A stretch of 61,960 nt of DNA, filler included, from Basidioascus undulatus (GCA_000826855.1; 12 parts of 12 records of this genome joined end to end with filler, not necessarily neighbours in it), one strand, 5' to 3'; positions 103-60,284 are shown, numbered from the whole stretch's first letter. Numbers and translations are program-made. Notes: generated by a model not told the origin, from the sequence alone.

Positions 103-1768
103 TCACACGTTTTTTGGGGATTGTGCTGCAGTGAGCTGGGCACGTTGGCTGGCAGCCATCCTGGTTATCGACGCAACGCTCGCGTAGGAAGGGAATCGAT
201 CTGTTAGAATGGGCAGAGGAGATCGCGGCATTTCAGCAGGACGTTGAGGGGGTGTCTGCCGCCTCGCGCCGCCTCTCGGGTGCAATACGGGACTCTCAAA
301 TGAAGGACGACGCCAGACAAGCGTGATTTTCTCCAATTGATTAACTGTCCGCAAACCCCTCTCTTCCGCCAGCGTCTCCATCTGCACCGCGATCCCACAG
401 ATCCGTCTCCGGCTCTGCATACACGCGCTTTCCTCACAGGCCCTCGCGTACTCGAGCCAGGGAAACCCGCCCTGTCCCGTCTTTTCCTCCTGCCGCCGCG
501 TTTGCTCGTTCCACCATGCCTGTTCCGGCCCGTTAACGTCGGGGACGGGGACGACCAAGGGCCGGTGCTCGACCAAATAGGAGCGGGCGAGGGAGTCGAG
601 CGCGGGGGAGAGGTGGTGCACGAGGGAGTGGTTGAGGGTGGACAGTGTGAGGAGTGAAGAGAGCGGGAGGAGAGACGCGATTTGTAGGAGGATGTCAAGT
701 GGGAGGGATGGAAGAGATGGGTCTGGTGTTAAAAGGTTCGATGAGGATGCCGGTGGCTGCGGAGAGGCGACGATCGAGAGGAGGGAAGAACGGTCGAGCG
801 AAGGCTTCCGAGATTGGGAAACTGGATAGAGGGAAGGCTTGCCAGACGTTTTCTTGCCCCACTGTGGAAGGTAAAGAAATTGAACCCACCGATCTGGCGG
901 ACGAAGACCCACTGGTCGCCCCTCCCAAGCATCGACTCCCGTCTGTCCTCCTCGGACACCTCGCCCTTGCTCATGAGGTCCTGCATCCACCGATCGACTT
1001 CCTCATCGACCTCCATCGCCTTCAAGTAGACACACATGCCCCCGGCACCGCCCGGTCCATACTCGATGCCGTCCAGGCCCCTCGCCAGCATCGGGTCAGG
1101 CGTTACACCCGCGAGGACCCAGAGCCGCGCGGGCGTCAGACGCGGCGCCGCGAGGGAGAGGATGCGGAGCACGGAGGCGACCACCCAGACCAGGGACGGC
1201 TCGTCGTAAGGCGAGTGCGTCCGCTGCGGGTCAACGGTCGATCGAAAGCCGCCTGGCCCGCCGTTGAGCTCAGGGTCGGGCGCGAAGTTGGGCAGCGAGC
1301 GAATCAGACCCTGTTGCATGGCCTCGAGAGGGTCTTCGGGCACGTCTGAGACCCGAGAAAAGTCAGAGAGCATAGTAGGACATGGTAGTAGGTCGCAAGG
1401 AGCGCGCTGGGTATGGCGTCTCCTTGTTCGGTGAACGATCCGATGAGGACGATATCCTTCCTGTTCTGCTCGTCCTCGTCCGTGCAGGGGCATAGCACGG
1501 GTTTGAGGGCTTTGGGGGTCTTAAACTTCAACCCTTTCCAATAAAGATGTCTGCCATCGGCCGTAATATTGTCGACAAGCTCTGCTTCGTAATCCTGCAA
1601 CAGGCATCAGCATGGCTCGTCACGCCGAGTGTGGTTTGCCACTTGCCATCATGACTTCGTTGCAGCTGCTCTTCAACGGCAGCCCGGAGATCTAGACTTG
1701 TGATGAGCCAAAGAAGTTGAGAAGTTTGAAAAGGAGGGACTCACAATGCAACTTATATCTTACCCCAT
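103..1768 (-). pseudogene. Multi-exon gene with a C-terminal F-box, probably pseudogenised
   Basis: F-box motif LPSLPLDILLQIASLLPLSSLLTLSTLN in ORF 103..990. Upstream exons splice to MG*DISCI|ISGLPLKSSCNEVMM|DYEAELV, with in-frame TAA at codon 3 (1760-1762). GC-AG intron 1595-1646; an apparently degraded GCGCGC donor near 1408. Confidence 0.6.
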
Positions 1769-2807
1769 TTTCCTTCTCTGGTCAAAGCAGCGTTGGGTAA
1801 TGGGAGAAGATGATGAAGACCCAGACAGGCAGACCGTCGGCTCGCTCAGGTTTGAACCCTACTGTAGCCTACGTAGTCTGCACACCCGCTGTGCTATGCG
1901 TCTCTTCCGATTCCCGAGACCACATTATTCCGTCAGGAAAATAATACAGTTGGGAAATTGTCCTTCTCTTGGTCAGTGGGTAGGCATTTTGAAGGCGTTG
2001 CAGCGATTTGCGCTGCAGCGGCAGGACTGCCGAGTTCAATTGAACCCGTCAACCACAAACGCTCCAGGTCGCTTTTGATGAATTTCGTGAAATCTTGACC
2101 TTTCATGCAGAGTATCTTCCTGCTTACCAACTGACTACCCTGTTGTATTGGTACATCGAGACTTCAATGGTCGACACTACAGTCACTCGTCAAATACACG
2201 ATCGAGTGCGGAACGACTGCGTGTTTTCTTTATCCACACAACTCGCTCCCATTTTTTGAAGTAAAAAAATGAGGCAGCGGATCCATATCTCCTCGGTGCA
2301 TATCTCTTCAGAGCTTTCTTGCCATCTTTGCAGTCTTGCCATCCCCAACCGCTACAACGGTGCCGGATCCGACTTGCTTCAAGCTTTGGCGGAACACCCG
2401 AAGAAGGGAGTTCGGCTTGCTCAAGGAGCAGTGAATGTGAGGGTTATATCATGAGCTATTGGCGAGCAGTGGGAAAGCACGGACGCAAAGGAGCGGGGGG
2501 CAACATGAACAGGAAGTTTTGTTGACTGCACTACTGAGATTGAAGGGAGAAACACTCTCACTATCACCAACCTGACTCACTATATTCTGTGGTCTGGAGA
2601 TTCAATTCCCTACTCATCGTCTGAAGAAAGGACAGTGATCCTAACGACAGATGTGGGACCCCAATGATAGCTGAGCTGGAGAAACTGAGCGATGTGACGA
2701 AGCACACATCTATGTTTGCCGTCCCGAGAGGAGCCCTTGGACCTTATTCTTCTTAGGCGTCCGGAGCATATAATCGGGTTTCTCCTACACACCCTCATCT
2801 CAGTTCA

Positions 2808-3439
2808 ATGAACGACGAAGAGAGACACTCAACTCAAGGCTGAGCTATCGACCGAGTCTGAGCCATCGATCAGGATCGAGCCTTCGGCCATATCCGACCC
2901 TTCAATCAAGCCCGAGCCGGCCGACATTCAGAAACTGATCGTCGGCAGCGCTTCGCGCGAGCCTGCCGAGCCTCAACTCGCCCAAGGGCGAAGGAGAGCG
3001 ACTCGAGAGTGGCGCGGTCGCACGGCCGACCGTCTGGGCCAGTTGAAGAAGGGGTCGAGCCGCCGGTAGACGGAGCGATGGATCACGAGGAGGAGAGCGA
3101 GGATGATGAAGTGTCAGTTGCCGAAGTGGACATCACTGTACGTTTTCGAATTTGAATCGCTATGGTTGGCTGTAGGGCAAGCTCGCTGATGCGGTTTCAA
3201 CCTCTCTCACGCACACGGGCATGATCTCCTTCTCCCTCTCGTCCGCCCCGCCTCCCGCGCTGAACCCGCACATCCACATCCACTCTCTCGGAGGGCGCAT
3301 CGGTCGCCCGCTCTCTTCACGCGAAGCCGAGTCCTTCAAAGCCGTCGCGACGCAGATCGAAGCGGGCGTGTGGTCTATCGAAGACGCCTCGACGGCCAAC
3401 GCGGCAAGGGAGCCATGGTTGCGCGAGGCGGTGGAATAA
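2808..3439 (+). pseudogene. Truncated, frameshifted 5' remnant resembling fungal 2OG-Fe(II) oxygenase-like proteins
   Basis: Exon with IKPEPAD and an acidic tract (frameshifted), then a GT-AG intron (~3139-3175), then GMISFS..NPHIHIHSLGGRIGRPLSSREAESFK..VWSIE..PWLREAVE*, which resembles the NPxLxIxGLGxIGLPLSxRDA N-terminus of that family. Stops 8 nt from the tRNA-Ala 3' end. Confidence 0.5.
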
Positions 3440-3446
3440 AAATAAT

Positions 3447-3519
3447 TGGACATTCCCGGAATTGAACCGGGGACCCCCTCAATGCGAATGAGATGTGATA
3501 GCCCCTACACCAAATGCCC
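3447..3519 (-). tRNA. tRNA-Ala(CGC)
   Basis: Reverse complement GGGCATT..TCTCA-TTCGCAT-TGAGG..GGTTCAATTCC..AATGTCCA folds as a cloverleaf with the G3:U70 alanine identity pair; a T5 run follows (Pol III terminator). Confidence 0.95.
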
Positions 3520-4017
3520 GACGTATGTTTACTTCGCAAAGACCACCTACTTGTAGATTATCTCATAAGGAGGTGAGGATGAGGTTCAAATGGCAATAGC
3601 TACGTATGTAGGAGAAGGGCAAGCGCGTCATCTCGGGATTCGAAGCGGGATCAACCGGGCCAGAAGACGACCGCCAAACTACTCTCTCTTGAGGGGCGGA
3701 ATAGGTCTTTTCAATTGCACAAAAGCAATAAACAAACCTGCTATTTACGTTCAAGAAGCCAAGAAAAAATGTACCAGACCCGAAATTGGGAAGAAAGCTA
3801 TGTCGCAGCGTCTGCAGCGGCGCTGCCACACAACGGAAGTGCGGTAGACGGACAGAGCCTGACAGCCACACTGGAGATCAATCGCACAAATATTGTCTAG
3901 AAACTAAGAACAATGAAGTACAGAAAGTTGTAGTAGCCCAAACGAATCGCACCCGCATCGCAAGCATCCCGGTTCTTCCTTCCTTCCTCCCCCTCCTGCA
4001 CCATCCCCATCCCCTCC

Positions 4018-7000
4018 TCAGGACAAGAACTCGAACCAGACAGCTCCTATCTCGCATCCACGCCACATGAGATATCCCCGAATCTCCGCACTGCGCAACC
4101 CACCTTGATGAGCCAGTACTCTTCTCCCAGCTGCGCATCGCTGCAGTGCTGGCGTACCTGTCTAGTTCCAGCCCGAGCTCAAACTCGACGCTGTATGGCC
4201 CCATATTCCTCAGTCACCGTAGCGGAATACTCCAAGAGCGAGAGAGAGGGATATTTACGCACTAGAACCCTTCCCGCGTCGAATACCACCGCTGCGCGGC
4301 CTGCTGGAACGTCGGGATATTCGACAGGTCGACCGACCACTTACAGAGCTCCTGTTGAACGCGCATCCATCGTTAACAATGGAGTAGAAAAAGGAGGAAG
4401 GAGGAGCACACCGTCGTCTCGCCCTCATCCGTATAGCGCATGATCCGGTCCGCGTCGGACGTGTACAAGATGGCAGAGAAGATCTTGTCTGATTGCCCCA
4501 CCAAACACCTTCAGCTTCTTCAATCGTCCAAAAGTCTGTATGAGGAGCCAGACGGACCTCCGGGGTCTTTGGCGAACTTGCAAAACGGGTGGACGACGCG
4601 CTGGCCCTTCCTGAGGATCGCCCCCTTCTGGACGAGGTACTGCAGCCTTCATACGCCTCCCTCTATCAGCTAGCTTCCAACTTCTTCCAAAAAAGGGGAA
4701 TTTGCACCTGTTTTCGCAAACCGTCACGCCCACATTATTCTGGATGATGTACGCCGGGCGCTTGCCATAGTCTTCCTGCTCGGCAGGAAGCTTGACGCGC
4801 ATGATGCTGTGCGGCTCCCCTCCTTCTCATCAGCACCATACCTTCATGAAAGCTGAAGTGAGGCCCAAGAACGCACTATGATCTAGGAGCAATGACCGAC
4901 GACACCACGCTGCGGTTCGAAAGCCCATACCGCGCCGCGCCCTGCAGCGTCGCGACGTCGCAGTCCGGCGGGCGGGCGATGACAGAGATTCGCCCTCCGA
5001 ATGTGTCCTTCAGGTCCAGTATCAAGCAGAGAAGTCAGCCAATAATAAGTGACGTCGAATGAAAAGAAAGGCGCGCACCTCGACCCGCTTGAACAGGTAC
5101 GACGAGCCAGCGAACCCGCCTACGAGGAGGAGCGCGTGGACGGGCTGACCGGCCTTGCTCAGCTGCTTGGCGATGAGGTCGAGCACCTTGCGCACGCACC
5201 CGACCCCCTGTCAGGAAACGTCCTTTCCGGTTCTTACTTGGATGAAATGGGACGCACCTCGTTCACGATCGGATCGAACACTTCCCGTCGCAGCACACGC
5301 CCTGGTATGGACAGTTCGCCGTTCTCGAGCCCAATACTAGGATCATCTATGTTGTTTCGCGCAGTTTCACCACACCCACCCGCATTCTCCATCAGTAACA
5401 CCCCTTCAAAGCAGCTGCAGCCCACGACGCACCCGGATCCTCGACGTTGAAACACGTAAAGATGAAGTTCGTATCTGCAACATTGCTCCATCCATGAGTA
5501 TCTCCGGGAAGCTTAAAATTCTTCGAACCGACGTACCGTCGTCCTCCGCCCCCCGGTAAGCGAGCTTGTCTGTCTCGCTGAAGCACGCCTGGAAGTTCGC
5601 GAGGCTGCGAGACCTCCGCCCGTCCCCTGTCAGTTGCCGCCAAAGTGTCCTGCAGTGAAATTGGGTGGGGCGGGATAGAGAGACAGTACCTGAGCGCGTC
5701 CGTATGCGCCGGATGGTCGCGCAGCAGGTGCTGCACGAGCTCGACGAAGCGCGTGTCGAGGAAGATGGAGCCGCAGTTGGATCCGGAACGAGCTGTGAGG
5801 GTGCACTCAGGTTCAGTGCGCATCCTCCTGGGGCAGAGAAGGTGCTTGAGGGAGACACACTGCAGAGCTCGGCGATCTCTACTCGGCGGGAAAGAGATCA
5901 GGTGGTACGCTCGGGGGGAGAAGGCGGAAGCGCGAGGACGTACCGAGATTCCTCAGGTTACCGAGAAGTTTGTACACTGCCAGATCCTGTCCGCCGCACC
6001 CATCACAGCCTGAGCTCCCCCATCTTATCCGCACTCCTCGTCACGTGCCTCAGAAACGCACCACCGTACCGCCACCCGCGTCCTGTCTCTCCCGTCCTCA
6101 GTACTCGGAAAAGAAGGGACAAGAAGGATTGGAACCCACGCAGATCAGCAGATTCTGACTCGGCTTGAGCTTGTGGACGTCCGTGAGCTGCGCGCAGTGC
6201 ACGGCGGCTGCTTCGGGCTCGCTGCACCCCCATCGGCCCATCGTAGGGGTCAGCACCTAAGTGACGGTGAAGGGGGACCTGACGAGCAAGAACAGACGTG
6301 ATTATGCGCAGGCGGCCCATCCACTCTTCCTCGGGCTCGCCAGGGCGCGAGGACTTGACGAGCCCCGCGGTGAGCGCGGCTTCCCGCATGAGGTTGCAGC
6401 CCTGTTTGGTGGCCCCGTGTTCATCAGTCCCGCCTCACTAGAACTCAAAAAGTAAAGGGAAAAGGACAGAAAGGGAGGGAAAAGGACAGAAAGGGAGGGA
6501 AAACACTCACCTTGGCGTCCCACGCAGCGGGCACAGTGAGCCACACATGCGCCGCGTCGAGCGAGGCGACGGCCGAGGTCTGCGCAGTGATCTGCTTCTT
6601 GGCATGCACCCAGAGCGCGGAGAGGTAGTCGGTTATGAGGTCGATGGGCTGCTTGTTCGGCTGGGGGGCGAGGGGGGGTAAGTAGTGAGTTGATTTGCGG
6701 AGGGGGCGAGGGGGAAAGGGGGACGGACAGGCAGCGGGGGCAGCCGATCGTGCACAGTTCCGTCTTGAAGCGCGGCGGGCTCGAGGTAGAGCTTGAACCT
6801 GTGGGTACATTCGATTTAGAGCCATCATAAAAGGAAAGATGGAAGGGGAAAGGGAAAGGGACGGGAAAGAGATACGTAGGGAAAGCCGGGACTCACCACT
6901 CGCACTTGCAAACGTGGGCATCAGGGATGTGCAGCTTCGCCTCGAGCCCCCACGCCAGGACGTCGCCCTCGGGGGAGTAGACGAGGCAGGTGGGGATCTT

Positions 7001-7612
7001 GCGGAACGTCTCGGAGGAGCCCGGCCAGTGGAGGACCTGCTGAATTGCGTTGGAGGTGTGGAGGGGGGAGGCATAGGCCACTCCTAAAATGCAGGGTCGA
7101 GAGCATCGAACTTAGAAAGCGATGTGGATAGGGAAAGGGGAGAGGGGAGAGGAAGGGGGAAGGGAAAGGGACGGACCGGACAGCGTCGTCCCCAAGTCGA
7201 TCGCGACCGACAGGCGGGACTCGTCCGCCGCCTGTGGGACCTCGCGGGCCTGCGCGCGCGGCAGGGACCCCGCGCCTGGGGGGAAGTGCTGGTTCTGGTC
7301 CTGGTTTTGGCCGGGGTAGGTCGGTGTGGGCCGGGCGATGTGGAATGTGGGTGAGTAGACGACGCTCGACCGTCCGCTCAGAGAGGGCGAGGGGGAGAAC
7401 GAGTGGGGGAAGGACGTGGGGGAGGGGGAGAGGTGCGCTTGCGGGGGAGGAGAGAGAATCTCCTCGGGTGTGGGAGTGGGGTTTGGGGAGAATGAGGGTG
7501 GTGAGAGAGGGAGGGGCGCGGAGGTGATGGGTCTTGAGGAGGGTGGGGGAGGGGGCCGGTTAGAGCACAGGGACTCGGAGGGCGCGTGGCGAGGGGTGCC
7601 GCAGCAGGACAT
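4018..7612 (-). CDS. HSPA12-type Hsp70-like ATPase, many introns
   Basis: Spliced motifs VAIDLGTTLSG, KIPTCLVY, WLTVPAAWD, IITEPEAAA, C|DAGGGTV|DLAVY, CGSIFLD, LLVGGFAGSSYL; ends EIRGYLMWRGCEIGAVWFEFLS* (TGA 4018-4020); start MSCCG at 7612. Confidence 0.9.
6457..6503. repeat. Tandem 20-nt duplication inside an Hsp70 intron
   Basis: GGGAAAAGGACAGAAAGGGA occurs twice in tandem plus a partial third copy. Confidence 0.8.
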
Positions 7613-8605
7613 GGTCTGGTGCTTGTTACACAGGAGGATGAAGAGGAGAAAGCGCTGATGGCCTTCTGAAGATGACTGATGGTAAGAACGAGCAACGAGC
7701 AACGTGACTGGGTGGGTCTAGGAGAACGCACACTCAGTCCCAACTGGGACTTTCAGGCACTGCGTTCGATTTCACCTGCAACAGTACTGTCGAAAATGCG
7801 ATTGCAACGCGTAGTCTCCGTTCGAGTTCAGTGGCGGCAAGGGCAGCAATGGCAATCCCGGAGGAAGGAGGACGTTGTGGAGGAAGATCAACCGGTGTCG
7901 GTCAGCGGAAACCGCTGCATGTGCAGGCGCGACAGCCCGGCGACAGCGGCTTGAACCAACCTCAACTTGAATGTTCGGAGCGACGGACCTTTCAGCACGA
8001 CGGACCTTTCAGCAGCCTCGCCAGCATTGATTTTTCCTTTGTTTTGTTATGGGTTGCAACCTCGGAGCGTTATTGGTTAGCTGACGCGGGGAAGAGACAG
8101 TTTAACGAATGTACTGCACCTGCTGTCAAGTATTCGACGTAGAGTGCGTGTTTTTGCCAATGGTAGATACATACTGTTTACCAAAAGCAAATTTAAGAGA
8201 TTTTTGCCCTCATACAAGTGCCAACGTACGCGCAGGAAGCCTATGGCCCAGCGGTCGTCCAGGCTGCAGGGCTCTTGTCCGCCCAGGTCCGCTCTCCGCT
8301 CTGAAGGGCGTAAAGCTTTTACGTGAGGAACTGCATGCATTAACATTTCCTGAGACTTTTTGTAAGTTACTTTCGATTATTTTACACCGTGCTACAAGTT
8401 CCATGGATTCCTTTCAGTAAATGGCAGATCCAACTGGCTCGGCGTCATCGGGCCCGCGAGTATGGAGCTCCGCAGAGGACATCGGAACCTTCGCCAGCGC
8501 CGTAACTAGCTTATTTGTGTACCTCCATCATCATCCAGCGCACTCAAGCTCACCACGCATCGATCAAACGTTTCATCACCTCTACTCACCTCTCGATCGA
8601 TACTC

Positions 8606-10449
8606 ATGGCTCCCTACACTCTCCGATGGGGTATCTTGGCCTGCGGCGGTATCGTAAATCAACCCCTTCGCATTGATCTCGATCGCCGTCTAACGAAGGG
8701 CTAAAGCGTTCCCCTATGATCAGGCCCAGACCTTCACGAAGGACCTCCTCCTCGACCCCGCCACGCGCGACGTGCACGACGTCCGGCACGAGGTCGTGGC
8801 CGTCGCGTCCTCCACGTCGGCGGACCGCGCGCGCGAGTTCGTCAAGGAGGTCGGCGCGAAGGAGTCAACGAAGGCCTATGGCAGCTATGAAGAGCTTGTT
8901 CAGGACGAGAATGTCGACATCATCTACATCGCCACGCCTCACAGCCATCACTATCAGAACGCGCTGCTGTCCTTGAGGGGGGGCAAGCACGTCTGCTGCG
9001 AGGTGCGTTCTCCGCCAGTCTGTTCTGGTTGAATGACCGTCCCTGATCATGATGCTTCCGTACTACCACAGAAAGCCTTTACGATCAACGCCAAGCAGGC
9101 GAAGCACGTTGTGCAGCTTGCGCAAGAGAAGAAGGTGCGGGTGTCTTCCCCATGCCGGCTCCACGTTTCCCGCTCCGGATGTGTATGTTTGGCTAACCGC
9201 CCCATCCATCGGCCACGTACAGATCTACCTTTTCGAAGCTGTCTGGACGCGCTTCTTCCCCCTCATGATTGCCCTCCAAAAGCTCTTGCACGAGGACCGC
9301 ATCCTCGGCAAGACCCACCGCGTGCACGCCGACCTCGGCATGCCGTTCAAGCGCGATGTCAAGCACAGGTGTGTTCGTGATGGTTGGCTCTCGTATCCAT
9401 GCAGCTTGTTGATTCCGCTTGATTGCAGGCTGTTCAACCCTGATCTCGGCGGCGGTGCTTTACTCGGTGAGCCATTCACGGTTCCCGGCTAAACTACGGC
9501 GGTTATCGCTAACGCCACACACCGTCTAGACCTCGGAGTGTACCCATTCACTCATGTCTTCTTGTGCAAGTCCTGTTGGAACGTCTTCGCGTACTGACGG
9601 AAGCCTTGTCCGTCCGCACGCTGAACTTCCTACCCCCTTCGTAGACCTCTTCCAAGACCCCGACAACGAGCGCACCCCGCCCGTGGTAACCAGCTCGATC
9701 CTCAAGACGCCTGAAACGGGCGTCGACGAGTTCACGACCGTGTCGCTCAACTTCCCCAAGCTTCACGCGAACGGCCTGGTGACTGCGAACGTGCGTACAG
9801 TCCCGCATCTTCTTTCCCACGTGCATCGAAGCTGATGCGCTCACGCACGCAGATGACGGTAAAATCGCCCGAAGACCGTGTCGTACTCATCCAAGGCGAA
9901 AAGGGAAGCGTGAGCATCCCCTGGCCTCCGGTATGGCATCCAACTACATTCTTCCTATTCTTTCGGGGCTGACGCAAGCTCCATTAACAAGTACCGCCCC
10001 GAATCCTTCATCGTCAAGCTGCACGACCAGGAGCCGCAAATGCACAACTACGTTCGTCGCTCTCCCGATCTTCATTCACCAACGCGTCTTCCCTCCGAGC
10101 TCACGCATCGCCGTTGCTTTCCCTTGCCAATGCAGCCCATTCACGGACAGGGCATGCACTGGGAGGTAAGTGATAGCTTTTAAGCTTTTCTACCGTCCTT
10201 TTAGTACAACTTATCTCCATTCCCTCACAGGCGGACGCATGCGCCCGGGACATCCGTGACGGCAAACTCGAGTCCGACCGCTTCCCGCTGTCCGAGAGCA
10301 TCGTTATCATGGAGGCGGTGAGCCCTTCCCCGTTTCTTGACGAGACTCTTTCGGTTCCCTCTGACGCTCCACGTCGTTGAAAGTTCGACGAAGTCCGAAA
10401 GCAGGCTGATTTCCAGTACCCTGAGGCGCTGGAATGGGTCGAGGCTTGA
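8606..10449 (+). CDS. Gfo/Idh/MocA family NAD(P)-dependent oxidoreductase (dihydrodiol / xylose dehydrogenase-like)
   Basis: MAPYTLRWGILACGGI, YGSYEELVQDENVDIIYIATPHSHH, GKHVCCE|KAF, EAVWTRFFP, GGGALLDLGVYP; ends EALEWVEA* at 10449. Confidence 0.92.
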
Positions 10450-10717
10450 GCGCGGAACACAACAGTGATCGTCCTATGGCGCCGCCGGTTGTTGAATGAG
10501 AAGATGAATACGAACTGCTTGCGTTGTTGTCTGCCGCTGTTCGTTTGTGGCTTCCACAGGTGGCTCCATGTCTTCACCTGCGCCCAGGCCGCAGTCTTCG
10601 AGGCGAACAGAACCAATGCGGATATATAATGATGGGTATGCGAACGCGTGCAAAACGGGAGTGCGGGGAGAAACTACACAACGATCCAAAGCAATGGGTA
10701 TGATTTGAGTTGGGAGG

Positions 10718-13661
10718 TCACACGGCGGGTGGCGGGGCGTAGACGGTGTTCCACGAAAACGTCTGCTGTAGCGCGAGCAGTCGAGCGTGTCGCCGCTGCT
10801 GAGCGGGAGTGAACGTCAAGTGGAGAGAAACTGCAGGTATTCACATGAAAGTCAGATGAAATTGATGTGCAAGCATTAAAAGTGAAATGACGAACACGAC
10901 GACAGCTCATTCTGCAGGAACGCGAGGAGGGCAGAGCGCAGCGAGAGAGTGTGCGAATGTAAGTGCAGCTGATGATTGCGCGTGGCAAATTGATATCAAT
11001 GTCGAGTTCGAACTGTGGGAAAGGTAAAGGGCAACGTACCAATGGGCGAGGTGAGAGCGATGTTCACGCCGTACAAAAGCAATCTCGCACTCAACTGCGA
11101 GGAGATCGGATGAGACGGCGAAATGTCAGTGAAGGGCCGTATATACTGCAAAAAAGACTTAATGATCGGAATAGTGTCGGAAGAAGATGGTGATAGCACG
11201 TACAGGCATGTACTCCAGCTCGGCCAAGCCGCTGAGGAACTTCTCTGCAGCGTCTTGCGCGAAGTATGTCGTGAGGTCTTCGGCGTCCCGCATGGCTTTG
11301 GCAAGCATGAGTCGCGTCCTAAAAATCGCGCATATGTTAGTTCGGAAAGTCTCCGACGCTTGTTGAACAGTGGATTACGCACGCAAAGACATCCCCGAGG
11401 AGCATCCTCTTAGAGAACACGCACGCGCACCGAGCATGCCGTGTGGCGATCTCGCTTGCGACTCCGTCGAGTTCGAAGAGAATAGAGTGAGCTTGCGCCG
11501 CGCGCTCGGCCAGCGAGGGTGCGGTGGTGCGGAGCCGGAGAGCCGAGGCGAGAACAAGGGAGACACGATTGATGAGGGCCCAGATCGTCGACTTGCCGAC
11601 CTATGAAGGTGATGCCGTCAGCGAGAGGTCTATTTTGAACGCAAATGCGGACTCACCGAAGACCCTTTCCCCCTTCCGCGAAAGAGCGACTCTCCGTTGC
11701 AGAGGGCAGCGATGTTGGCCGGCTGTATCGCGTAGAGCTCCTCCGCGCGTGGAGGGGAAGGTTCGTCGGTCTCGTCGTCACCCGGGCAGTTGGCGAGATA
11801 CCGAACGGTAGATGCGACCGTGTTCCAGAGCAGTCTGCGATGCCGTTTGCGCGAAAATTTCAGCGGGCGACGCAAGGAAACTCGCTGAGATAAAGGGAAA
11901 TGGCAAAACGCACCGACGCGCCTGCTCCTTTCCTATCTCCGTATCGTGCGACTCGAGCCACCTGGGCATGCTGGCGAAAGTGGGAGTGTACCTGTTCCCC
12001 AGAGAGAGCATGTCGCAGTGGCACACCCCCTCATCGCCGCCGTTGGGCAGCGCCAACCCGGACGGTAAAGGCGTAGCCTCCGAGGGAGGATGATGGCCCT
12101 GCAGTGGCACTGCCGAGTCGCCGTAAAGCGTAACGCCTGAGCACTGTACGTCGACGTAACCGAGACCGCACGCTCGAACACGTCAATCCACCATCCTGAT
12201 CGTCCCCCCGCGCCCCCGTTCCGCAACCGCCGTATGTAGATCCAACACACCTGCGGCCTGGGCAACCTGTAGTCTGGCGCGTCCGCCAGAGACAAGCACG
12301 GTGAACTCGGTCTCAACGCGTGCGTGCGAGGTGAAACGGGCCTGGGTCGCGGGAGGTAACGGCGATACGGCCACGGATGGCGTAGACCAGCGCGGGAGAC
12401 GTTTGAGCGGGGAGGGAAGGGGTGCGAAGAGCGCGGAAGACGGAAGAAGGTCGGGGCGTGAAGTGTGAAGGCAAGGTTGGCATTGACCGTCCAGCCTTTC
12501 CAAATTTGTTGATTCAAAGAATCGACGCCGTATGACGGGAGACATTAGGTTGATGAGCACGGCGCGCGGAACTGCGAGAAAGAGGACAGATTGCAACGCA
12601 CGCAGCCACTGTATTCCCAGCACTTCCGAAGAACTCGTAGAGTAGATGGTCGTACCACGTTTCGCGTGCGTATTAGTTGTTCGGCAGGCGAAGAAGAATG
12701 GCGGAGGGAAAGGTTGAAGCGGTGGATGTCGAAGGAGTGGGAGGGGATGGTGGTCCGAGGGCGTGGGCGAGGGCGGAGTGGTACTTTGGTGTAAAGGCGG
12801 TGGAATGTGAGGTCGTAGCTGATGAGGCAGGTAGAGCTGCTGCAGTAGGGATGACGGGTATATCGGAGGATTGCTGAGTAGGCGTATCGGAGGAGCGTTC
12901 GGACGTGCCGACGAGAGCGGCGGGAGCGTTCGACGCGATCGAGGACGCAGTCGTTGAGTCGCACGCAGACGCGCCGGCTGTCACGTCACGTCTGAAGCCG
13001 GCGGTTCTCGTGGGGTGATAGCGGGCGTGCTGATACGAGTCGAAGCTCGTCGTGAGTAGGAAGAAAGGGAGGGAGAGGACGAGATGTTGGACGCTGGAGA
13101 GTGGGGCGAAGGAAGGCTGGTGGAGGCGGAGGTGGGGCCCGGAAGAGGTGTGCTAGTAAAGGGGGTTTAGACGGCTAAGTGCCGCATTGTGAACAAAACG
13201 TTAAGATCAATATCACGTCAACAACTTGTAACAGAACGTAGAACACTACTGACCTCCTTGCCTTTGCCGCTGCCTTCAACGCGCGCCTTGCCCTCCTCCC
13301 CCGACTGCCCTGGCTCCTCCGTCTTCTTCTTCCTTCGTACGCGAGTGCCCGGCGCGCGGTCGGGACCTCTCATCCGCAACTTCCCGTACACGCACTCGTC
13401 AGCGGCGCGCCCCTTGCGATCGCACCGCTTGCACGGGTGCCCGCCAGAGCAGGCCAGCTTCTGGCGCCGACACTCGGCGCACGCGACGTGCTGGCCCTTC
13501 GGGAGGCGGGACGTGTTGGGCGTTGGTGTCGGAGCAGGTGTGGATGGGTTTAGGGGATCTTGAGAAGGGAACTCGAGAATTGGAGGGTGAGAAGCAGTTG
13601 AAGAGCGGTGGGCGGACTCTGGAGCGAGGCGGTAAGGATGGTGCGTGCGGTGTGGCTGCAT
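10718..13661 (-). pseudogene. Zn(II)2Cys6 fungal transcription factor, disrupted downstream of the zinc cluster
   Basis: ACAECRRQKLACSGGHPCKRCDRKGRAADECVY. In-frame TAA at 12673-12675 in PNN*YARETWYDHLL; the middle region (FTLHAPTFF / SPALVYAI / LQVAQAAGVL) is split over three frames. 3' end approximate. Confidence 0.7.
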
Positions 13662-14646
13662 CTGTCGTCCACGTCCCCTAGCAAACGTTTCGGCAGGGCC
13701 GCTTGGTGACTGTCGTTTTGTGTAAGCTTCAGCGGTAGAATGTTGGTTTGGGAGCAAGTGAGGAGCGAGGGGTAAGTGCGGGAAGGAGCGAGCTGCGATG
13801 ATTGATCGGAGCTGCAGCTGCACGGTTCGAGAGAACGCCTCGATCACTCATGCTTCCTCTGGCTCTGTATACTCAGCAAAGCTACACCAGTTTCACTGGA
13901 TTTGTGAGAATTGTTTCTAGGACTCGAAGCTTCGTAGACCAAGCTGGACCGGACGACGCAGCGTCTGCCGACGGCTGAGTCGACGGCTGACAGGCCAGCT
14001 CTGGACGAGGACTGTCTCACTTTTCTCCATTCAAACCATGCTGAGCGGCAGGAGTGGCTTCCCTTCGGGTATAGACGGTTACGGAAGTCAAGTTATGAGA
14101 TTCCTTTGCGAAGGATGAAAGTGAGGAATACAAAATACGCCATGAGAGGTGGGTCGCTGCTCTTCGCCACTGCATTGTGCATTGCTGCGTGGAATGAATC
14201 CGCTCGCCGTTTGCAGCATGCTGAAGCATCACGAGGCCGCAGATACCGGCTGGAGCGTTGAAGGACGATACATGCCGTAGAAAGTTATGGTCGCCGTATC
14301 TTAAGATCAAGCACGCAGTGGCAAGGGCAGAGCAATACTTTAAGTACTTGCAGGCAACAACGGCCTGACGACGGACATCTGCGATCGCAACCATGCTGCA
14401 AGTACTTGTCGGCGGTACCTGACGCCCCTCACTTCAATAAAACATGCAAATGCGTTTTGAGAGAATGCGCACAAACCAGAGAAGTCCAGTGACCGTCACG
14501 CCTGTTCAGTATCGTGCAGCCGCTGCCCGCGTGGCAAGTGTGCAAACAACGAGCATCCGCGGCAGATGAGCAGCCTCGCCGCCATATCTCAGCAGAATAT
14601 ACATGGCGGAGGACAATGCAACTGAATTCCATGATAAAGACATCGT

Positions 14647-16831
14647 TCAAAGCCCTCTGTGCGCAACCGCTACTTTGAGCGCCTCCCACGCAGCCTCGAG
14701 TTTCTCCACCCTCCTGACCAGCTGCGCATCCACAGCCGTCTCCCGCGTCACCCTCCTCGCAGCCCTAACCCCCTTGGACACATTCCTCCACCCCACCCAG
14801 GTCCAAATGTTCGTGATGACCAAGAGTGCAACGAGGATGAGCAGGCCGAGCACAAAGGGGTTGCTCGGCGCTTCCATAAGCTCGGACATCAGCCTCTCGG
14901 GCAGCGGCGCCGCCTCATCCGCGGTCTCCTTCTCCTCCTCGAGCTCGTTGTCCGCTGCCCCTGCGGCTTCGGTCGACTCGAACTCGGCTGCATGCGCCCG
15001 GATGTGCGCGCGCACTGCACGGGCGAGGTCTTTGTGATACGACCGCTGGCCTTCGATCGCGGACTTGGTGATCACGCCTGTACACAAGGGGAAGTCAGAT
15101 GATTTCGTAAAACAAGAACCCAAAAGTCTAAGAAAACGACAAGCTGCGCACCTTTGAGCATAGACCTCCCTGTCCACTCGACTTGCGTCGAAACCAGCAC
15201 ACGGGTACCGCCTTTTGCTCCGCCCGCCCACGCAATCGCAGTCTTAGTGTGCACCTCGAACCTGCACTGAAAGTCAGTCTTTTTCAGTAAAGGTTCTGAT
15301 GAGAGAGCTGGGGTAAATGGTGCATGTCAGAACAGAAGGACGCACGCGTTGCCGCTGGGCACGTCCGGCGTCCGCGCGACAGTGAGAGTCTCGAAGTACG
15401 TCTCCGGGTCGACGTGGAGCTCCTCGTCCGTTATTTCGCACTTGGTTTGGGAGGGCCCGACCGGACCGGAAAGAGGTTTGATGTACCTGCACGCCAAAAC
15501 CATCCCAACAATCCAACAAGTCAGTAAGAGACTCGCAGGATGTGGGGACGGTATGAACAGAACCAACGGACGACATCGTGCGCTTTTTCATCTTGTCGCC
15601 AGTCCATTCGCCGACATCTAAGTCTGCAGAGAACTCAAAAACGTCAGCCGTGCGATAATAAAAGACCGCACCCTCCATCCTTGACAAAGATGTGTGAAGA
15701 CTCGCCTCGAAGTTTTTGATCCTTCTCCCAGAATTGCTTCATGAACGCGTCCGTCTTCCAGAGAAGCTCGAACACCCGCTCTGGCGTCGTAGGAAGATGA
15801 ACGTCCAGCACCACCTCCTCGAACGGCTCCGACTCGCACTGCGTCGCGGGGTGCCCATCGCCCGCCGTCGCCGTTGCCGGTTCGGCTTCGCTACGCCTCT
15901 TCTCCGCCTCGCCAGCGGGAACGGCGTCGCTCGTCGGGTCGAGCTGCGAAGCAGCGCTATACGCCTCGAACGCCTCGGGGTTCGCGTCCCGCCAGAGGTC
16001 CACCATGATGTCGTATGTCGCGTCTCGCGAAAGGAAGGAGGCGAAGAAGTGCTGTAGAAGACGGTGCATTACATCAGCGATGTGCAGCTTGACGGCAACC
16101 CACAACGACCGTACCTCTTTGTCCTCGTCGGTAAAGACGGTGATAGCATTTGGTATGACTAGAGCGGTCATAGACTTCTCGATGCGCTTGATGTTTTGGA
16201 ACGGGATGGAAAAGATCTTCTTGTAACCGAAGACGCTCGCGCGGAAGTTGAGGTGCTTCTGCGAGATGTACAGGCGACCTGCGAGGAGGACGGTCTCTTG
16301 ATACGCGCAGCTGTAGTCTGTTTGAACGTTTTACCTCACTTCAGTAAGGTACAGCAGGTGGTCAAGGCACCAACATACGGGTGACCAGTTGCTCGCCCGG
16401 TTCAATCGCGTCGTCGAAGTAGCGATGGAATAGGGCAAGCCGTTTCTCATCCGACTGTGAGATAGGAAAAAGATCAGCTTGGTAAACCAATGCCAAGAGA
16501 AACGTATTGATCCAGACACCGTCGATTCTGTTGTTTGTTGAGTCTCCGTCGTCTCCGTCGTCTCTACCGAACGGATGGAGGCCGCCTTCTCGGACGGCAC
16601 AGGGCTCTCGATCTTGTGACCCGAGCCCCTCGGCGTTGGCTCGGGGTCGTCGTATCCGGGCGAGGAATCTTTTGACGCGCACGCTTCCGCGGCGACGGCA
16701 GCTGCCGGCGTAAGCGCGCCGGTCGATGGGTCGTGGATCGAACTGTCGTCGAGAGGAACGGTTGTCGATCGAGGTGGCGTTCTGCTCTCGGACTGGGCGA
16801 AATGTTTGATCGTTTCGAAAATACCGGACAT
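14647..16831 (-). CDS. GRAM + VASt (StARkin) + transmembrane sterol transfer protein, LAM/Ltc family
   Basis: GRAM: YSCAYQETVLLAGRLYISQKHLNFRASVFG..IPNAITV..FFASFLSRDATYD. VASt: YIKPLSGPVGPSQTKCEI..RTPDVPSGNAFEV..VEWTGRSMLKGVI. C-terminal hydrophobic helix LGLLILVALLVITNIW. Confidence 0.92.
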
Positions 16832-20236: not shown

Positions 20237-20534
20237 CGTGTCGAATCAAGAAAGATGGGGGAGATGATGAGAGTGCAGGCGAGGAGACGCGGAAGAAACG
20301 CGTCAAGGGTGACAGTGACGCGTCAAGGGGGGACGGGAGAGCGCCAAATAAGTACTGTTGATGTTTGCCTGTTAGAATTATCGCTGTCAGGGCTTGAGAT
20401 CACAATGGTGACCAAACAATACGGCGAACAGTAGAAGTATCGATGATAGTGTCCGTTTGAGCGCCGTGAAGCAGTATGCAAGCGTCCATCTTTTGGACCA
20501 AGCTCATCCTCCCTCACCGAGCTGATCCCAATCC

Positions 20535-22232: not shown

Positions 22233-22634
22233 GCCGAATCAGCAGCGAACGAGGTCGGTGTGAATTCGATGATGATGGTCGCGAGCCAAGAGGCTGTGCA
22301 GCTTCGTGCAGTCGCGCCTGGCTCGCTGCGAGGCGCGAAGACCCCGGAAGCGCGTTGCAGCGTGTCCCAAGCCTGCGGCTGCGACAGTGAGTTGTTTGCA
22401 GGTTTACTGAAAACCTGCTGAGAAATATTCATCGGACTCAATCAACCTAATTCTGAGCAGGGAATACAATGAAACGTAGCCGCGCCGCACCACCGACTGG
22501 ACGCCTGCCCACCGGCTTCACATTTTCACCCAAAGCCATTCCATCCACGCCGTCAAATCTATCCCGAACCCAACTAATGTATAGAGCGAGTCCCCTTCTA
22601 CTCCACAAATCCACTTGGCAGCGTTGAGGTCTAA

Positions 22635-27757: not shown

Positions 27758-27767
27758 GTTTACATCT

Positions 27768-27839
27768 TCCTCCTTAGCTCAGTGGTAGAGCGCGTCACTA
27801 GTAATGACGAGGTCAGTCGTTCAAGTCGGCTAGGAGGAA
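27768..27839 (+). tRNA. tRNA-Thr(AGT)
   Basis: TCCTCCT-TA-GCTC..GAGC-G-CGTCA-CTAGTAA-TGACG-AGGTC-AGTCG-TTCAAGT-CGGCT-AGGAGGA-A forms a cloverleaf with anticodon AGT. Confidence 0.95.
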
Positions 27840-42575: not shown

Positions 42576-43783
42576 ATGGCGCAGCTGAACGCCCTGCCCG
42601 ACGAGATGCTCATGGCCATCGGGTCGCGTCTCAGCGACGCAGACGATCTTGCCAGTCTCTCTCGCCTCTCGGCGTCTGCACGCCATAGCAGAGCCCTTTC
42701 TCTACCACCGTGCAGCACTTGGTCACGACAACCTTTCATTATTAGTTCATTCGCTTAAAAACCGCCCAGCGCTCGCAGCGCACGTACGCGAGCTTGACAT
42801 CGATTTGTCCAATCATCTTGAGGACTGACTCGGACGACGAAGAAGCTTGCCGTGTCGTGAGTGGCAGCTCGACGAACGACATCCTGGACCTCTTTCGCAT
42901 CCTTCCGGGGGTGGACTCTCTTTGCTTCAGCCAACCGTGAGCTTCGCGTGTTTGAGCGAAAATTTCTACGCGCCGCCCCTCGACGTGCAGAAGTGCCTGC
43001 ACTCTGCGCAAACTGAGCTTAAAGACTCACAGACCCGTGCTCATTACACTCTGGTGGAAGTCGTGTCCTGTCTGGCTCTGCCTTCTCTCCTCATTCTCTC
43101 CATGAGCGGAACCACACTCTGTACGGAGCGGCCCGGATACGACGAGGCCGGCCTCGCCGCGCTGAGGGGTGCCTCGTCCATTACCTGCCTGAGCCTGTGG
43201 GACTGCATGGACGCCTATTATTAGGATCGTCTGATGGGGGTTCTTCAGATCCCTCGCCGTCTCGACCGGCTGGCGTATAACTGGGACTCTTCCAGGCCGG
43301 ACCATGGGGAAGCACTCGATTGCGTGAAGCTCCACACTGCGCTTGCCAACTCACGCCGCTCAATCACCTGTCTTAACTGCAAACTGGTTACCCCGCATGC
43401 GGCTTTGGGTCTCTCCTACACAGCTACACAGCTTTGCGCTATCTCACATTGAGCAGCCCCATTATTTTCGGCGCAAGCCGGCGAAGCATCTGCTTGGCGC
43501 GCTTCCACCCGGCCTGATATCGCTTGAGCTCTTCATGGCCTCCCCTTACGAGCACCGCTTCGAGCCTCTGGTAGACCTTATCAATTACAAGGACGTCATC
43601 ATACCTGCTCTTGAAACGCTCGCGATCCATTGTTGGGAATGGAAATCGAAGGACTCCGCCGGCCGCAAACGGTTGCGCCAGGCCTGCCTCCTCGCGGGCG
43701 TACGAGGCGGCGGGGAGCTGAAGGATGAGAAGAAGAAGCACTGTGAGTTCGAGCCTATACACTTCCCATACGATGGCGAGTGA
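42576..43783 (+). pseudogene. F-box / LRR-like gene, disrupted
   Basis: MAQLNALPDEMLMAIGSRL (F-box); in-frame TAG 43222-43224 between two same-frame ORFs; frame switch near 43400 into LPPGLISLEL..IPALETLAI. Confidence 0.65.
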
Positions 43784-50870: not shown

Positions 50871-51201
50871 ATGCCCAAGACCAGCCGCCCCCTGCGGAAC
50901 GCCCTTATGTGGCATATACTCTGCCGGTGTACAGGACCGAGTTTACTGTATTCAGGGAGAAGATAGCTGAACATGCCAAAGCGATGGACGAAAAGTTCGG
51001 GGCGCAGGCGAAGGAGCTCGGGCTCGCTGCCCAGATGAAGGAGCTCGACGAGACGCTTGCGCGCAGGCGAAGGAGTTGGAGTGGATCGCTGCCCAGCTGA
51101 AAGAGTCGGACCCTAAGCTGGAGATGGATATGGGGGCGCTGGAGCGCCAGATGGCCGTATTCCTCCCCTGGCTGAACCTTTATGAGGAGAGGGGTGAGTG
51201 A
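50871..51201 (+). pseudogene. Frameshifted coiled-coil-like remnant with an internal duplication
   Basis: AQAKEL..AAQ.KE.D unit at 51002 and again at 51061 (offset 59 nt, out of frame). Confidence 0.35.
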
Positions 51202-51689
51202 TAGTCACGAAGGAATGCATACGAGCCTGGAGGGAGCGGGGTTTCGCAAGGATGCTGTCAGGGTCCTGGCATTTCTGAGTATAATTTCAGCGTCAATTAC
51301 CCACCCGGCTGCCCACCTACGCGATTCGCTGCTTCGCCACCTCGACAAATGAACTTCCTCATACCCTTTTCATTCCTAGAAAACTAACGGATCAATATTT
51401 CGTTTCATCATAGCAAAAGGGTCACAGATGCAGGGCCAGCGGAAGCTATCTTAAAGCGCTGAAACGCGGGTCCCACGGTTCCCATCGCCGGACCAAGCTC
51501 ACCCACGTCTTGCGCACAGCTTCGTTCTCTACCACCATTATCCGCCCTCAACTCGAAAGTGTAAGTCTTCGGTCCCAGCCTAGCGCCGCACTCCGGAAAA
51601 GAGGCGATTAGAGACGGCTACTGGCACGCGAGTAGGAGCGCAGACGGCACAGCAAGCCACTCTGCCTCCCTGTCTCCGCAACACGGGGA

Positions 51690-53588: not shown

Positions 53589-54773
53589 CTACGCATAAAT
53601 ACTTGTCCACCATCGCTTCGTCTCCTTCACGTGTAGTTCCGTCCTCCACACGTTAATCACAGGCACGTCTACTTTCCCCAGCACTGCAGACAGTGCGAAC
53701 CAGGGCTCCAAGCCGAGAGGTGCTGACGTCTGCATTCCAAAGTGGATGGCGGTTGTGACACGGCGAAGCATAGGCAGATTGTCTCTGGACAGGGCTTCAA
53801 AGAACGGGTGGATGCTGTTGATTTCGGCCCGTAAAAGTCTTCAGGCTGTTCGAGAGTCTCAAGCTCAGGATGGCAAAGTGCGGCGCCGGACGCGGCATTG
53901 AAGGCAGGCGGTGTGTACTTTTTGAGGGAAGGGCATAGGGTGAGGAAATCGATGGGCTCCGATAGGTCTATCGCGCCGAGATGTAGAGTAGAGAGATGAG
54001 ACCCCATATGATCAAGAACGTGGCGCAAGGGCTCGCCCGGCATCTCGACATGTTGGAGGTCCAGATGATGAAGCATCGGCAGCGAGGAGCAGCTGAAAGT
54101 CTCAAGGATGAGCGAGTCATAAACTCCCGGGAGTTTAGAATTTTGTGTGCTGATGCTAAGATATCGCAAAAGTGGCAGATCGAGACTGGAGCGGGAAGAA
54201 GGAGCGTACTGGTCCGACTCAGAATAAACTAGAACAAGATCAAGCTTGGTCATGTTTGTAAGATGAGACACGTGCGAGGAGAGTTTCCATAGAGAGGTGG
54301 GTACGCAGGGAAAGTTCCCGCAGATTGAGTACAGCTGGGCTGACCGAGAGGCCTAAGATCGAACCGAGCATGAATTGCGTGTCTGGAAAGGCGGCGTCGA
54401 CATATTCGACCCCCTCCATAAAATTGAAAGGCGCGAGGATATGGAATCGATATGGGAGAGGTCTGTGTCCTTGTCATCGATAGAGTCAAAAGCGATGCGC
54501 CCCAAGCGAACCGGTCGACCCAGACGAACTCGACACCTGACGGGGTCGCGAGTGAATTGTGCCACTTGCGACAAGTGCACTCCAATGTGAAAAGCACGGC
54601 AAGGTGTCCACGACAGCCTTGAAATGACAGTTGACGAGCGAGAGGTTTAACTCGTGTGCGATGATGATTTGCCCTTCTCCATACCATCGGTACCTCGGTT
54701 CCCCTTCATCGATCACGAAACGGAGGATGCGAGCGAGAATCTCGATGGGAATGCAGTTCATGATCGATGACAT
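53589..54773 (-). pseudogene. F-box + LRR-like gene with several frameshifts
   Basis: MNCIPIEILARILRFV..LSLVNCHF (F-box); LPLLRYLSI, LPMLHHLDL, LSTLHL, LCPSLKK spread over ORFs in different frames with no intron signals to join them. Confidence 0.65.
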
Positions 54774-55047
54774 CAGCGACGATAGAACAAGTGTGAGATG
54801 TGCCGTGATGTTGGCCAGGAGAGAGGATCGACGGGGTGCCGGAAGCGGAGAGCGATGGAGGTGAGAGGGCAACCGGAGTTCGTCGAGCGAGTTGCGGCGG
54901 CAGGATTTTGCAGCGCCACTTTCTTAATGACTCGGACAAGTAAAGTCCAGACTTCTCTCATCTAAAACTGCGGGTAGAGGCAAAAAAAAAGTATTGCCCA
55001 ATGTGCCCAATCCAGACCGGCTGTGTGGGGAAGAAATTTAAAAGGAC

Positions 55048-55115
55048 TTCCTCCTAGCCGACTTGAACGACTGACCTCGTCATTACTAGTGACGCGCTCT
55101 ACCACTGAGCTAAGG
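55048..55115 (-). tRNA. tRNA-Thr(AGT), second copy, first 4 nt lost at the contig end
   Basis: Identical to 27772-27839 in reverse complement; different 3' flank with a T4 run. Confidence 0.92.
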
Positions 55116-55215: not shown

Positions 55216-55243
55216 TTCTCGTTCTTACCTTCCTTGCGTTGCA

Positions 55244-58538: not shown

Positions 58539-58638
58539 NNNNNNNNNNNNNNNNNNNNNNNNNNNNNNNNNNNNNNNNNNNNTTAATTAATTAANNNNNN
58601 NNNNNNNNNNNNNNNNNNNNNNNNNNNNNNNNNNNNNN
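58539..58638. other. Artificial contig linker
   Basis: N44-TTAATTAATTAA-N44. Confidence 0.98.
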
Positions 58639-59320
58639 GGGGTGTGAGAGGGGGTGGCGGGGGGCGGGGCTGGGATGCTGAGGACCAGGCTGTGGGCATA
58701 GTGCAAGGCAAAACCGCCTCATGCGATGCCTATGGTGATGGCGGTCAATACCAAGGCTCGTGTTAGGTCAAGCAGCGATGCGCAGGCGCGGTCTTCCCTG
58801 ATCTACCTGACGTCATTTGCGAATCAAACGTCGCAGATATCGCAGGAAATTGCCTGCCTTCTTGCCTTTTTTTCGTAGGGCAGGATCACGCCCATTCATG
58901 GTATTAACCTCCTAGAAGCCAGACAGGCATTGTCTGTCCAGGTGTGAGCATACCCGGTGTATCAGGCTACGCTAGGGCACGGTTTGAACGCCAGCCTGGC
59001 CCCAAGACAAGGAGGACGGGCTTCAGAGTTGCACGACCGATACTGACACTGTCTTTCTTTTTTGGATATACACATATTGTATTGTAATATCTCTATGCAG
59101 CAGGACGTATCAGGGGAGACGTCTCTGTTTGACGGCCTTTCCTTTCAAGTAGCCCACGTCTCAGTCTGTCTGGCCCCTTCATCGCGCGCCTTGTTTCTTT
59201 TACTGCCGTCGCGCCACGGCTGCAAATTGAGCTCTCTCCAACATTTCTACGCCCCGCAAACTCTCGCCCCCTTCGTGACGTTCTCCTCTCTACCACCAGC
59301 ACCGGCACTTTACTACCAGA

Positions 59321-60284
59321 ATGGGCGGCGCAGTCGATACCCACCTCATGCTCGTGTACGGAGGGGAGGTTAACATGGAGGAGCTCATCATCATCGCCAG
59401 GGCCGGCCGCAATGCGAGGTGAGCAGAGGCTTACCAGTAAGTCATATCGCGGTAGAACCTTCCTCTACACCTGTGCTATCTTCGAGACCAAGGAGCAGAT
59501 TGTGGGCAAGGCGGGCTGGGCGGACCTGCCCGCTGAGCTGCGGGCGCGGATCCGCAACGAGTTTCGGGCGCAGTGCCAGGCGGACGCCCGCGCGCGCACC
59601 ACGACGGAGGAGCACGACAAGGTGTTCCATAGCCGTAAGACAAAGATTGTCCAGGTAGGAATCCTTCGGCGTGTGCGAGATGAGGCGCAGGATGGTTTGC
59701 GGGCGACTGTGGCTGATCTGCTGTGGGTGGAAGTTGGACGCCAGTTCATGGACAAGGCCCTCTCGCCTTACAACCTCTAGGTACAGCACTTCCCCGACTG
59801 CGATTAGGACTCCGGCGATTTCCCGAACACGACTTGGGCTGTTGGTAAGTCTTCACAGTGTGGCCACACGCCGACTTCCTTTCTCCCATTAACTGTCGTG
59901 CATCACACCAGCTGACGTTGTTGTTCCCTTCGCCGCGTCTTCAGGACACCGCTATCTGCACCTCTTCCGCATGGCAAGAAAGTCCCCTACGTTAGCACAG
60001 CGACCTCCAAGGGTGCGATGCCGGCGTCGACGTCGGCTACTACGCCGACACGCAGTCGTTCGCGCTCTCACCCGCGCTGTTCGACGGGCACGCCGCGCGC
60101 GAGGCGGACTTCCGGCGCGCGAGGGAGGAGCTCCGGACGCGCTTTCGCCTTGGGCTGGAGGGTCAAGTGGCTGCTTGGGAGGAGGGAGGAGGAGGCCAGG
60201 CGCAGGCTTAGGACAGCGAGCAGCTATCGGAGCACGGGGACTCTCGCTTCATCAATTCGCACGACGGTCTTGACTGCCGAGTAG
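59321..60284 (+). pseudogene. Hypothetical gene with an F-box-like segment and in-frame stops
   Basis: MGGAVDTHLMLVYG..NAR|TFLY..WADLPAELRARI; TAG at 59778 and 59805 with further coding-like exons after them. Confidence 0.45.

Follow-up and report, generated by a model that had tools for sequence, protein, structure and literature searches.

Frame-breaking lesions in accessory genes beside intact core genes in 62 kb of Basidioascus undulatus DNA

We analysed a stretch of 61,960 bases from Basidioascus undulatus (GCA_000826855.1), hereafter the window, in which genes with broken reading frames stand beside intact ones. It consists of 12 contigs joined by N44+TTAATTAATTAA+N44 linkers. Contig 1 occupies 1-24201 (24.2 kb); each of the eleven remaining contigs measures about 3.3 kb, at a GC content of 54-65%. 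Four loci carry lesions that we regard as firm: a GST gene on contig 4, an F-box/leucine-rich repeat (LRR)-like pseudogene on contig 7, a coiled-coil orphan on contig 9 and a transcribed orphan, designated gene X, on contig 1. Lesions are probable or possible at three more, giving a tally of seven loci on five contigs (1, 4, 7, 9 and 10). The denominator is roughly 30 genes; the count leaves aside a second gene on contig 10 and contigs 5, 11 and 12.

The gene content was established by comparing stop-to-stop open reading frames (ORFs) with Pfam, 511 of at least 70 aa and then 132, 138 and 34, making 815. Contig 1 gave a GFO/IDH/MocA oxidoreductase, a Zn2Cys6 factor and a GRAM/VASt (LAM) gene. 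Contig 2 carries IBA57/GCV_T, PET191 and GPN3, contig 3 ELP1, and contig 4 a kinase and the GST. A RING protein was found on contig 5, a PPR protein on contig 6, an F-box on contig 7, an ankyrin gene and a CAF120-like PH domain on contig 8, and a Suc_Fer-like protein on contig 9.

A preliminary description of the window had placed about 12 lesion loci on seven contigs. The genes it named were recovered by the scan of 511 ORFs, and some accessory genes are truly decaying beside intact core genes, as it had proposed. A core of the lesions was real, but the count was too high, and part of what had been counted was probably introns. Its 'oxygenase-like remnants' and 'secreted protein' found no counterpart: the scans of 815 ORFs contained no oxygenase-type family and no evident secreted protein.

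Loci with broken or possibly broken frames

The 5' part of the GST gene lies at 34201-34478 on the plus strand; the contig stops at 34542, before the gene is complete. It was examined by Pfam, PDB alignment, tblastn and an intron-join test. The ATG at 34201 opens MVLKLYGPPGSVGVKR, and the N-terminal residues MVLKLYG..GVKR are encoded at 34201-34248 in one frame. The remainder of the N-terminal domain is encoded in another frame, from about 34251 (34242/34251). This second frame matched Pfam GST_N only from profile position 17, and the best solved GST in PDB aligned with it from chain residue 15. The ATG-bearing frame gave no match in PDB.

Metagenome GST ORFs (28 loci, tblastn) aligned across both frames. 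Their first 7-15 residues fell on 34201-34248 in one frame and the following residues on 34242-34478 in the other, with 6 residues set against 20 nt. None of all GT/GC-AG introns of at least 28 nt joined the two parts. The change of frame falls between 34222 and 34253, and the (GC)4 run at 34245-34252 is its most likely site. Further on, the gene has an in-frame intron (34333-34413) and its exon 2 (34414-34478). We interpreted this as a firm lesion, which no predicted intron could remove.

On contig 7, the F-box/LRR-like pseudogene starts with the ATG at 42576 and extends to 43790 on the plus strand. Its F-box-like profile is split over two frames. One frame (nt 42588-42671) matches positions 2-28 of the profile. 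A different frame (nt 42640-42714) matches positions 19-44; this second match (E 0.08) is weak alone but exactly complementary to the first. The frameshift is thus inside the F-box, at 42640-42671. The two halves were joinable only by introns that were too short or deleted the domain. A probable in-frame TAG (43222-43224) was read by eye. Near 42826 and 42935 the frame changes again, possibly at introns, candidates for which exist at both places. The lesion in the F-box itself is considered firm, and none of the candidate introns would remove it.

The coiled-coil orphan on contig 9 (50711-51290, plus strand) was characterized by an internal repeat in two frames and by the intron-join test. An identical 15-nt stretch is present at 51002-51016 and at 51061-51075, 59 nt apart, and one peptide motif therefore appears in two different frames. 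The frameshift was placed at a (GC)3 run (51059-51064). Downstream, a strong intron (51194-51290) lies in the second frame. No intron joined the two frames. This lesion also appears firm, in that no intron could be drawn to remove it.

Gene X occupies 18251-20180 on the minus strand of contig 1 and was defined by an RNA contig, a codon-usage frame plot and reading by eye. The spliced RNA contig spans 19999-19474 and 19403-18085, with a single intron (19404-19473) removed. Since it is colinear over 18085-19403, this region is a single exon in the mRNA. Within this exon the coding frame switched three times in the frame plot, with margins of 7-30 bits, at the places (about 19010, 18810 and 18400-18500) where breaks had been noted by eye.

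Five lesions were mapped on the minus strand of this exon. An in-frame TAA lies at 19219-19221 and an in-frame TGA at 18643-18645, the frame continuing around each stop. A frameshift lies at 18998-19026 (FS1), where no intron joined the frames. Another lies near 18780-18830 and a further frame switch near 18380-18560. A 51-nt candidate intron could have removed the TAA; it was kept unspliced in the RNA contig. No open frame of the mRNA exceeds 212 codons. No match to the gene X ORF was found among 1.84 billion representatives, and no relative among metagenome contigs. The lesions of gene X are firm, and no intron can remove them.

Just downstream of the gene X stop, a 41-nt stretch (18300-18340) recurs, with four differences, in another DNA contig of 16.6 kb. 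This stretch is a short dispersed repeat.

The Zn2Cys6 transcription-factor locus (10700-13661, minus strand) was recognized by Zn_clus, RNA joints and an mRNA ORF. The ORF that contains the zinc cluster runs from the ATG at 13661 to a stop at 12988 (198 aa). Introns were demonstrated by RNA at 13175-13253, 11835-11913, 11599-11654 and 11318-11381. The well-spliced 3' half was read in other frames than the zinc-cluster ORF. The middle is of low complexity, and the frame plot was ambiguous there. The Pfam ORF scan found no Fungal_trans domain at the locus, and the zinc-cluster ORF gave no match to longer proteins.

We interpreted the Zn2Cys6 locus as probably broken in the middle, at 13174-12251. 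Truncated products are possible, such as the 198-aa DNA-binding part. RNA depth was 4-8 times higher over the 3' half (10672-12672) than over the zinc-cluster half (12673-14006); separate transcription of the 3' half is possible.

An F-box/LRR-like gene on contig 10 (53672-54923, minus strand) was recognized by overlapping ORFs and a weak LRR match (E 0.18). A frame change near 54284 separates the overlapping ORFs 54243-54473 and 53672-54352. No intron joined them for close anchors, and a homologue search with the ORF gave no match. A frameshift near 54284 is probable from these frames.

The third locus is an F-box gene at the start of contig 1 (100-1640, minus strand; F-box E 0.025). A frame change at 1346-1407 lies where no canonical intron was found, and only unlikely GC-AG introns joined the frames. 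A second frame change corresponds to a plausible intron (822-889). A lesion is possible in this gene, with a micro-exon solution as an alternative.

The broken loci come from families that are either large or lineage-specific, namely those of F-box, GST and Zn2Cys6 proteins together with orphans. Descent from a family was recognized by profile for GST_N, F-box-like and Zn_clus. Such descent was not recognized for gene X, which had no homologues, or for the contig 9 orphan; for these two the basis is codon periodicity or the internal repeat. Introns have been kept (GST 34333-34413, gene X 19404-19473 and those of the Zn2Cys6 locus), and these loci are not retro-copies.

Intact genes, introns and sequence accuracy

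Many of the apparent frame changes in the window are only introns. GPN3 has at least six within 1.1 kb, and the intact GFO/IDH/MocA-type oxidoreductase (8606-10430, plus strand) has 11 in 1.85 kb, five of them with RNA joints. The HSP70-like gene (4382-7657, minus strand) was readable without a lesion, and has two micro-exons at 5950-6140, one of 21 nt (DAGGGTV) and the other of 45 nt, each flanked by canonical introns. Intron donors varied (GTGCGT, GTGAGT, GTCCGT, GTTCGT, GTGCAC and GTATCG). With such intron density and micro-exons, a reader without tools over-calls frameshifts and in-frame stops. A claim of a lesion must show that no intron can remove it.

Lesion-free continuous models were obtained for ELP1 (9 introns), the kinase (2), CAF120 (5) and LAM (5), and also for IBA57, the Suc_Fer-like gene, the ankyrin gene, g9, GPN3, the oxidoreductase and the HSP70-like gene. 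In ELP1 (27758-31101, minus strand), three of the nine introns have unusual donors (GTTCGT, GTGCAC and GTGCGC). The PPR gene is a single exon (38083-40281, plus strand) that kept one frame all along the frame plot. The ESM Atlas confirmed the kinase ORF as a kinase. Some accessory genes were clean too, and breakage is not general to them. The absence of lesions from core genes, noted in the preliminary description, was borne out: ELP1, GPN3, the kinase, PPR, CAF120, LAM and IBA57 were all modelled without one.

Five control exons were followed in the frame plot: that of the PPR gene, three kinase/ELP1/CAF120 exons and one further kinase exon. A second frame was never settled on; the remaining windows of the plot were undecided.

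A purpose-built dynamic-programming gene finder that allowed lesions called 'lesions' in ELP1 and CAF120, and these were rejected as plain introns. It chained adjacent genes and placed false lesions in CT-rich introns. It was therefore run with lesions off, as an existence test; it is uninformative for the weakly biased F-box genes.

The sequence of contig 1 was compared with assembled reads over 3492-22000. A contig from DNA run X1 covers 3492-22000, and contigs from DNA run X2 cover 3492-13287 and 13295-22000. Over these 18.5 kb no other letters and no gaps were found. The X1 and X2 contigs were assembled independently, from different years and studies, at depths of 51 and 18; the assembly may have been built from at least one of these runs, which leaves at most one as independent. 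Spliced RNA contigs from a separate library, X3, showed no differences from the window. X3 is labelled 'DNA?', yet it is spliced: all 15 joints listed were GT..AG or CT..AC, and it behaves as a transcriptome.

The lesions in this stretch of contig 1 are not sequencing errors. Given zero differences over 18.5 kb, errors on contigs 4, 7, 9 and 10 are unlikely. Two of the checks proposed with the preliminary description bear on this. Comparison with reads bore out contig 1 without difference over 3492-22000, and contigs 4, 7, 9 and 10 lie outside it. The search of RNA for introns that remove the lesions found the gene X exon (18085-19403) unspliced; part of the other counted lesions are probably introns.

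Several other features were observed. The LAM (GRAM/VASt) region (14007-18008) had an RNA depth of 0-1.9, versus 20-190 in its neighbours; LAM is an intact core gene that is seemingly barely expressed in the RNA sample. A short repeated element at 3438-3520 showed a DNA word depth about 8-fold up (411 versus 51). Many contigs end or diverge there, and loose ends were found in all three runs. At 22276-22407, a 44-aa ORF with a weak Cmc1-like match (E 0.0037) is possibly a gene for a small mitochondrial twin-CX9C protein.

Over about 66-72 nt, contig 10 ends (55044-55115) in a sequence whose exact reverse complement begins contig 3 (27772-27843). Either the two contigs are neighbours in the assembly graph or both contain one repeat. 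At 60830-61960 both strands have long open frames (codon scores 102 and 126 bits) that continue past the end of the contig; they gave no Pfam match, and the coding strand is ambiguous. No telomere repeat was found in the window.

Source of the lesions and explanations considered

Runs of (GC)3 or longer cover 643 of the 60,992 bases and hold two of the roughly six best-placed frameshifts. The frame offsets in the GST and in the contig 9 orphan both fit the gain of one GC unit. Replication slippage at (GC)n is the likely source of these two frameshifts.

Repeat-induced point mutation (RIP) is indicated by a TpA/ApT ratio above about 0.89, a (CpA+TpG)/(ApC+GpT) ratio below about 1.03, or depletion of TCG. 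In all 29 regions TpA/ApT was 0.43-0.85 and TCG was not depleted, and the RIP composite index was 1.0-1.3 in the broken loci. With the indices negative, RIP was rejected as the cause.

A hybrid origin was also checked. Among the pieces listed, the DNA contigs of less than 99% identity were repeat stretches of 41-65 nt; copies of less than 90% identity fall outside the detection of this comparison. A single unbranched contig of 20.7 kb spans contig 1. In this material nothing on contig 1 points to a recent hybrid or to heterozygosity.

We favour the explanation, and hold it to be probable, that the lesions mark real, fixed, non-processed pseudogenes or decaying genes among dispensable, family-type or lineage-specific genes, as in ordinary turnover. 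Small indels and nonsense changes would have disrupted the reading frames, at least two of the frameshifts presumably through the gain of one GC unit by slippage in (GC)n runs. The broken genes would keep their promoters, splice signals and transcription, as demonstrated for gene X and the Zn2Cys6 locus. Purifying selection would remove such lesions from essential genes on the same contigs. Ordinary purifying selection leaves the core intact while dispensable genes break, and this is the simplest reading. The lesion load ranged from a single break where the gene is otherwise well preserved (GST, contig 9 orphan) to many breaks with weak codon bias (the F-box genes of contigs 7 and 10), a spread that would argue for gene turnover as a continuing process and not for one event.

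Several points weigh against this explanation. The local density is high, with up to three of about ten genes on the 24-kb contig alone. Pseudogene totals published for fungi amount to a few per cent of genes, and the density here looks higher than in such surveys. Comparison of the window with itself by tblastx found no paralogues of the broken genes, so that an origin from duplicates is not shown. Read support is partial, contigs 4, 7, 9 and 10 being outside the comparison. No homologues were found for gene X or the contig 10 F-box/LRR gene, and none were sought for the contig 9 orphan; multi-frame coding in these three therefore rests on periodicity, the repeat and reading by eye. With no homologues from the searches made with the ORFs of gene X, the contig 10 gene and the zinc cluster, ancestral states, the ratio of nonsynonymous to synonymous substitution and comparison with relatives are out of reach.

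Genome-wide erosion, through relaxed selection or a small effective population (in a symbiont, a parasite, an asexual lineage or a bottleneck) or through a defect in repair or slippage control, would account for up to seven of about 30 genes being broken, for lesions of differing ages, for the two frameshifts at (GC)n runs and for the continued transcription of broken genes, as reported for the bacterium Sodalis glossinidius (PMC7067036). We consider it doubtful. The core genes have strong codon bias and open frames; they are lesion-free with a steady coding frame, and relaxed constraint in conserved genes was not seen. The evidence also comes from 62 kb only, mostly short contigs that are possibly enriched in fast-evolving regions. 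This is not a fair sample, and genome-wide decay is not demonstrable from it. Its stronger form, early erosion in which about 15-20% of the genes are young pseudogenes, still transcribed and spliced, that were made largely by slippage in the GC dinucleotide runs of GC-rich coding DNA, as a eukaryotic counterpart of Sodalis or the leprosy bacillus, is unlikely.

The remaining explanations would reduce the lesions to reading, strain or sequence. That most of them are mis-readings of unrecognized introns, micro-exons and non-coding ORFs in GC-rich DNA, with few genes broken, is improbable. It draws on the 11 introns in one 1.85-kb gene, the exons of 21 and 45 nt, the false lesions of the gene finder in ELP1 and CAF120, antisense frames that also score about 0.23 bits per codon, and the candidate introns for two frame changes on contig 7, the A-B junction on contig 10 and the TAA of gene X. 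The breaks in the GST, the contig 7 F-box and the contig 9 orphan leave no room for an intron, however; those of gene X lie in an exon unspliced in RNA, and the control exons showed no frame switch. Damage peculiar to the sequenced strain, from long culture, mutagenesis or a mutator phase that left wild relatives unaffected, has little probability. The three runs may come from one strain (X1 and X3 are from one sample, and X1 and X2 are possible sources of the window), and the well-preserved GST and contig 9 orphan carry single, young-looking lesions. Against this, the several lesions and weak codon bias of the F-box genes on contigs 7 and 10 need long decay, and gene X has five or more lesions. 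Frameshifts made by sequencing or assembly errors of a fragmented draft are very improbable: the contigs are short (3.3 kb), two frameshifts lie in GC repeats and four of the contigs concerned fall outside the read comparison, but contig 1 showed zero differences over 18.5 kb in two DNA runs and the RNA contigs, the in-frame stops are substitutions rather than indels, and no core gene was hit.

Comparison with known systems

Fungal mutators deficient in mismatch repair show slippage frameshifts in dinucleotide microsatellites. As in these, two of the frameshifts here lie in (GC)3-4 runs, with offsets that fit one added unit; unlike in these, the remaining frameshifts are not clearly in repeats.

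In two fungal surveys, 871 pseudogenes were counted in eight yeast genomes (PMC2876123) and 436 in Fusarium graminearum (PMC12311193). The yeast pseudogenes are described as derived mostly from species-specific duplicates, clustered regionally and biased to environment-related and unknown functions (PMC2876123). The hemiascomycete yeast (PMC2876123) and F. graminearum (PMC12311193) pseudogenes resemble those of the window in having frameshifts or premature stops with introns kept, in their bias to environment-related families and unknown functions, and in being in some cases potentially transcribed. RIP is reported not to be the cause in F. graminearum (PMC12311193), and no RIP signature was found here either. 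Unlike the cases in the surveys, the broken genes here have no parent paralogue in the window, their density looks higher, and transcription was seen directly at two loci.

Sodalis glossinidius offers another likeness. There, many recently inactivated and still-transcribed genes are reported beside intact essential genes (PMC7067036, PMC3091646), as in the window. On the other hand, Sodalis is a bacterial endosymbiont with about half of its genes broken genome-wide, whereas the present material is a 62-kb eukaryote sample.

Unless the local density holds genome-wide, the finding bears on annotation: pipelines applied to this intron-dense genome will either span such breaks with spurious introns or predict truncated proteins, and micro-exons and odd splice donors will mislead readers who take frame changes as lesions. 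If the density held genome-wide, B. undulatus would offer a rare view of genome erosion under way in a fungus, in which the pseudogenes are transcribed and the mutational mechanism can be seen. If true, such a case could help to date shifts of lifestyle and to study the continued expression of broken genes.

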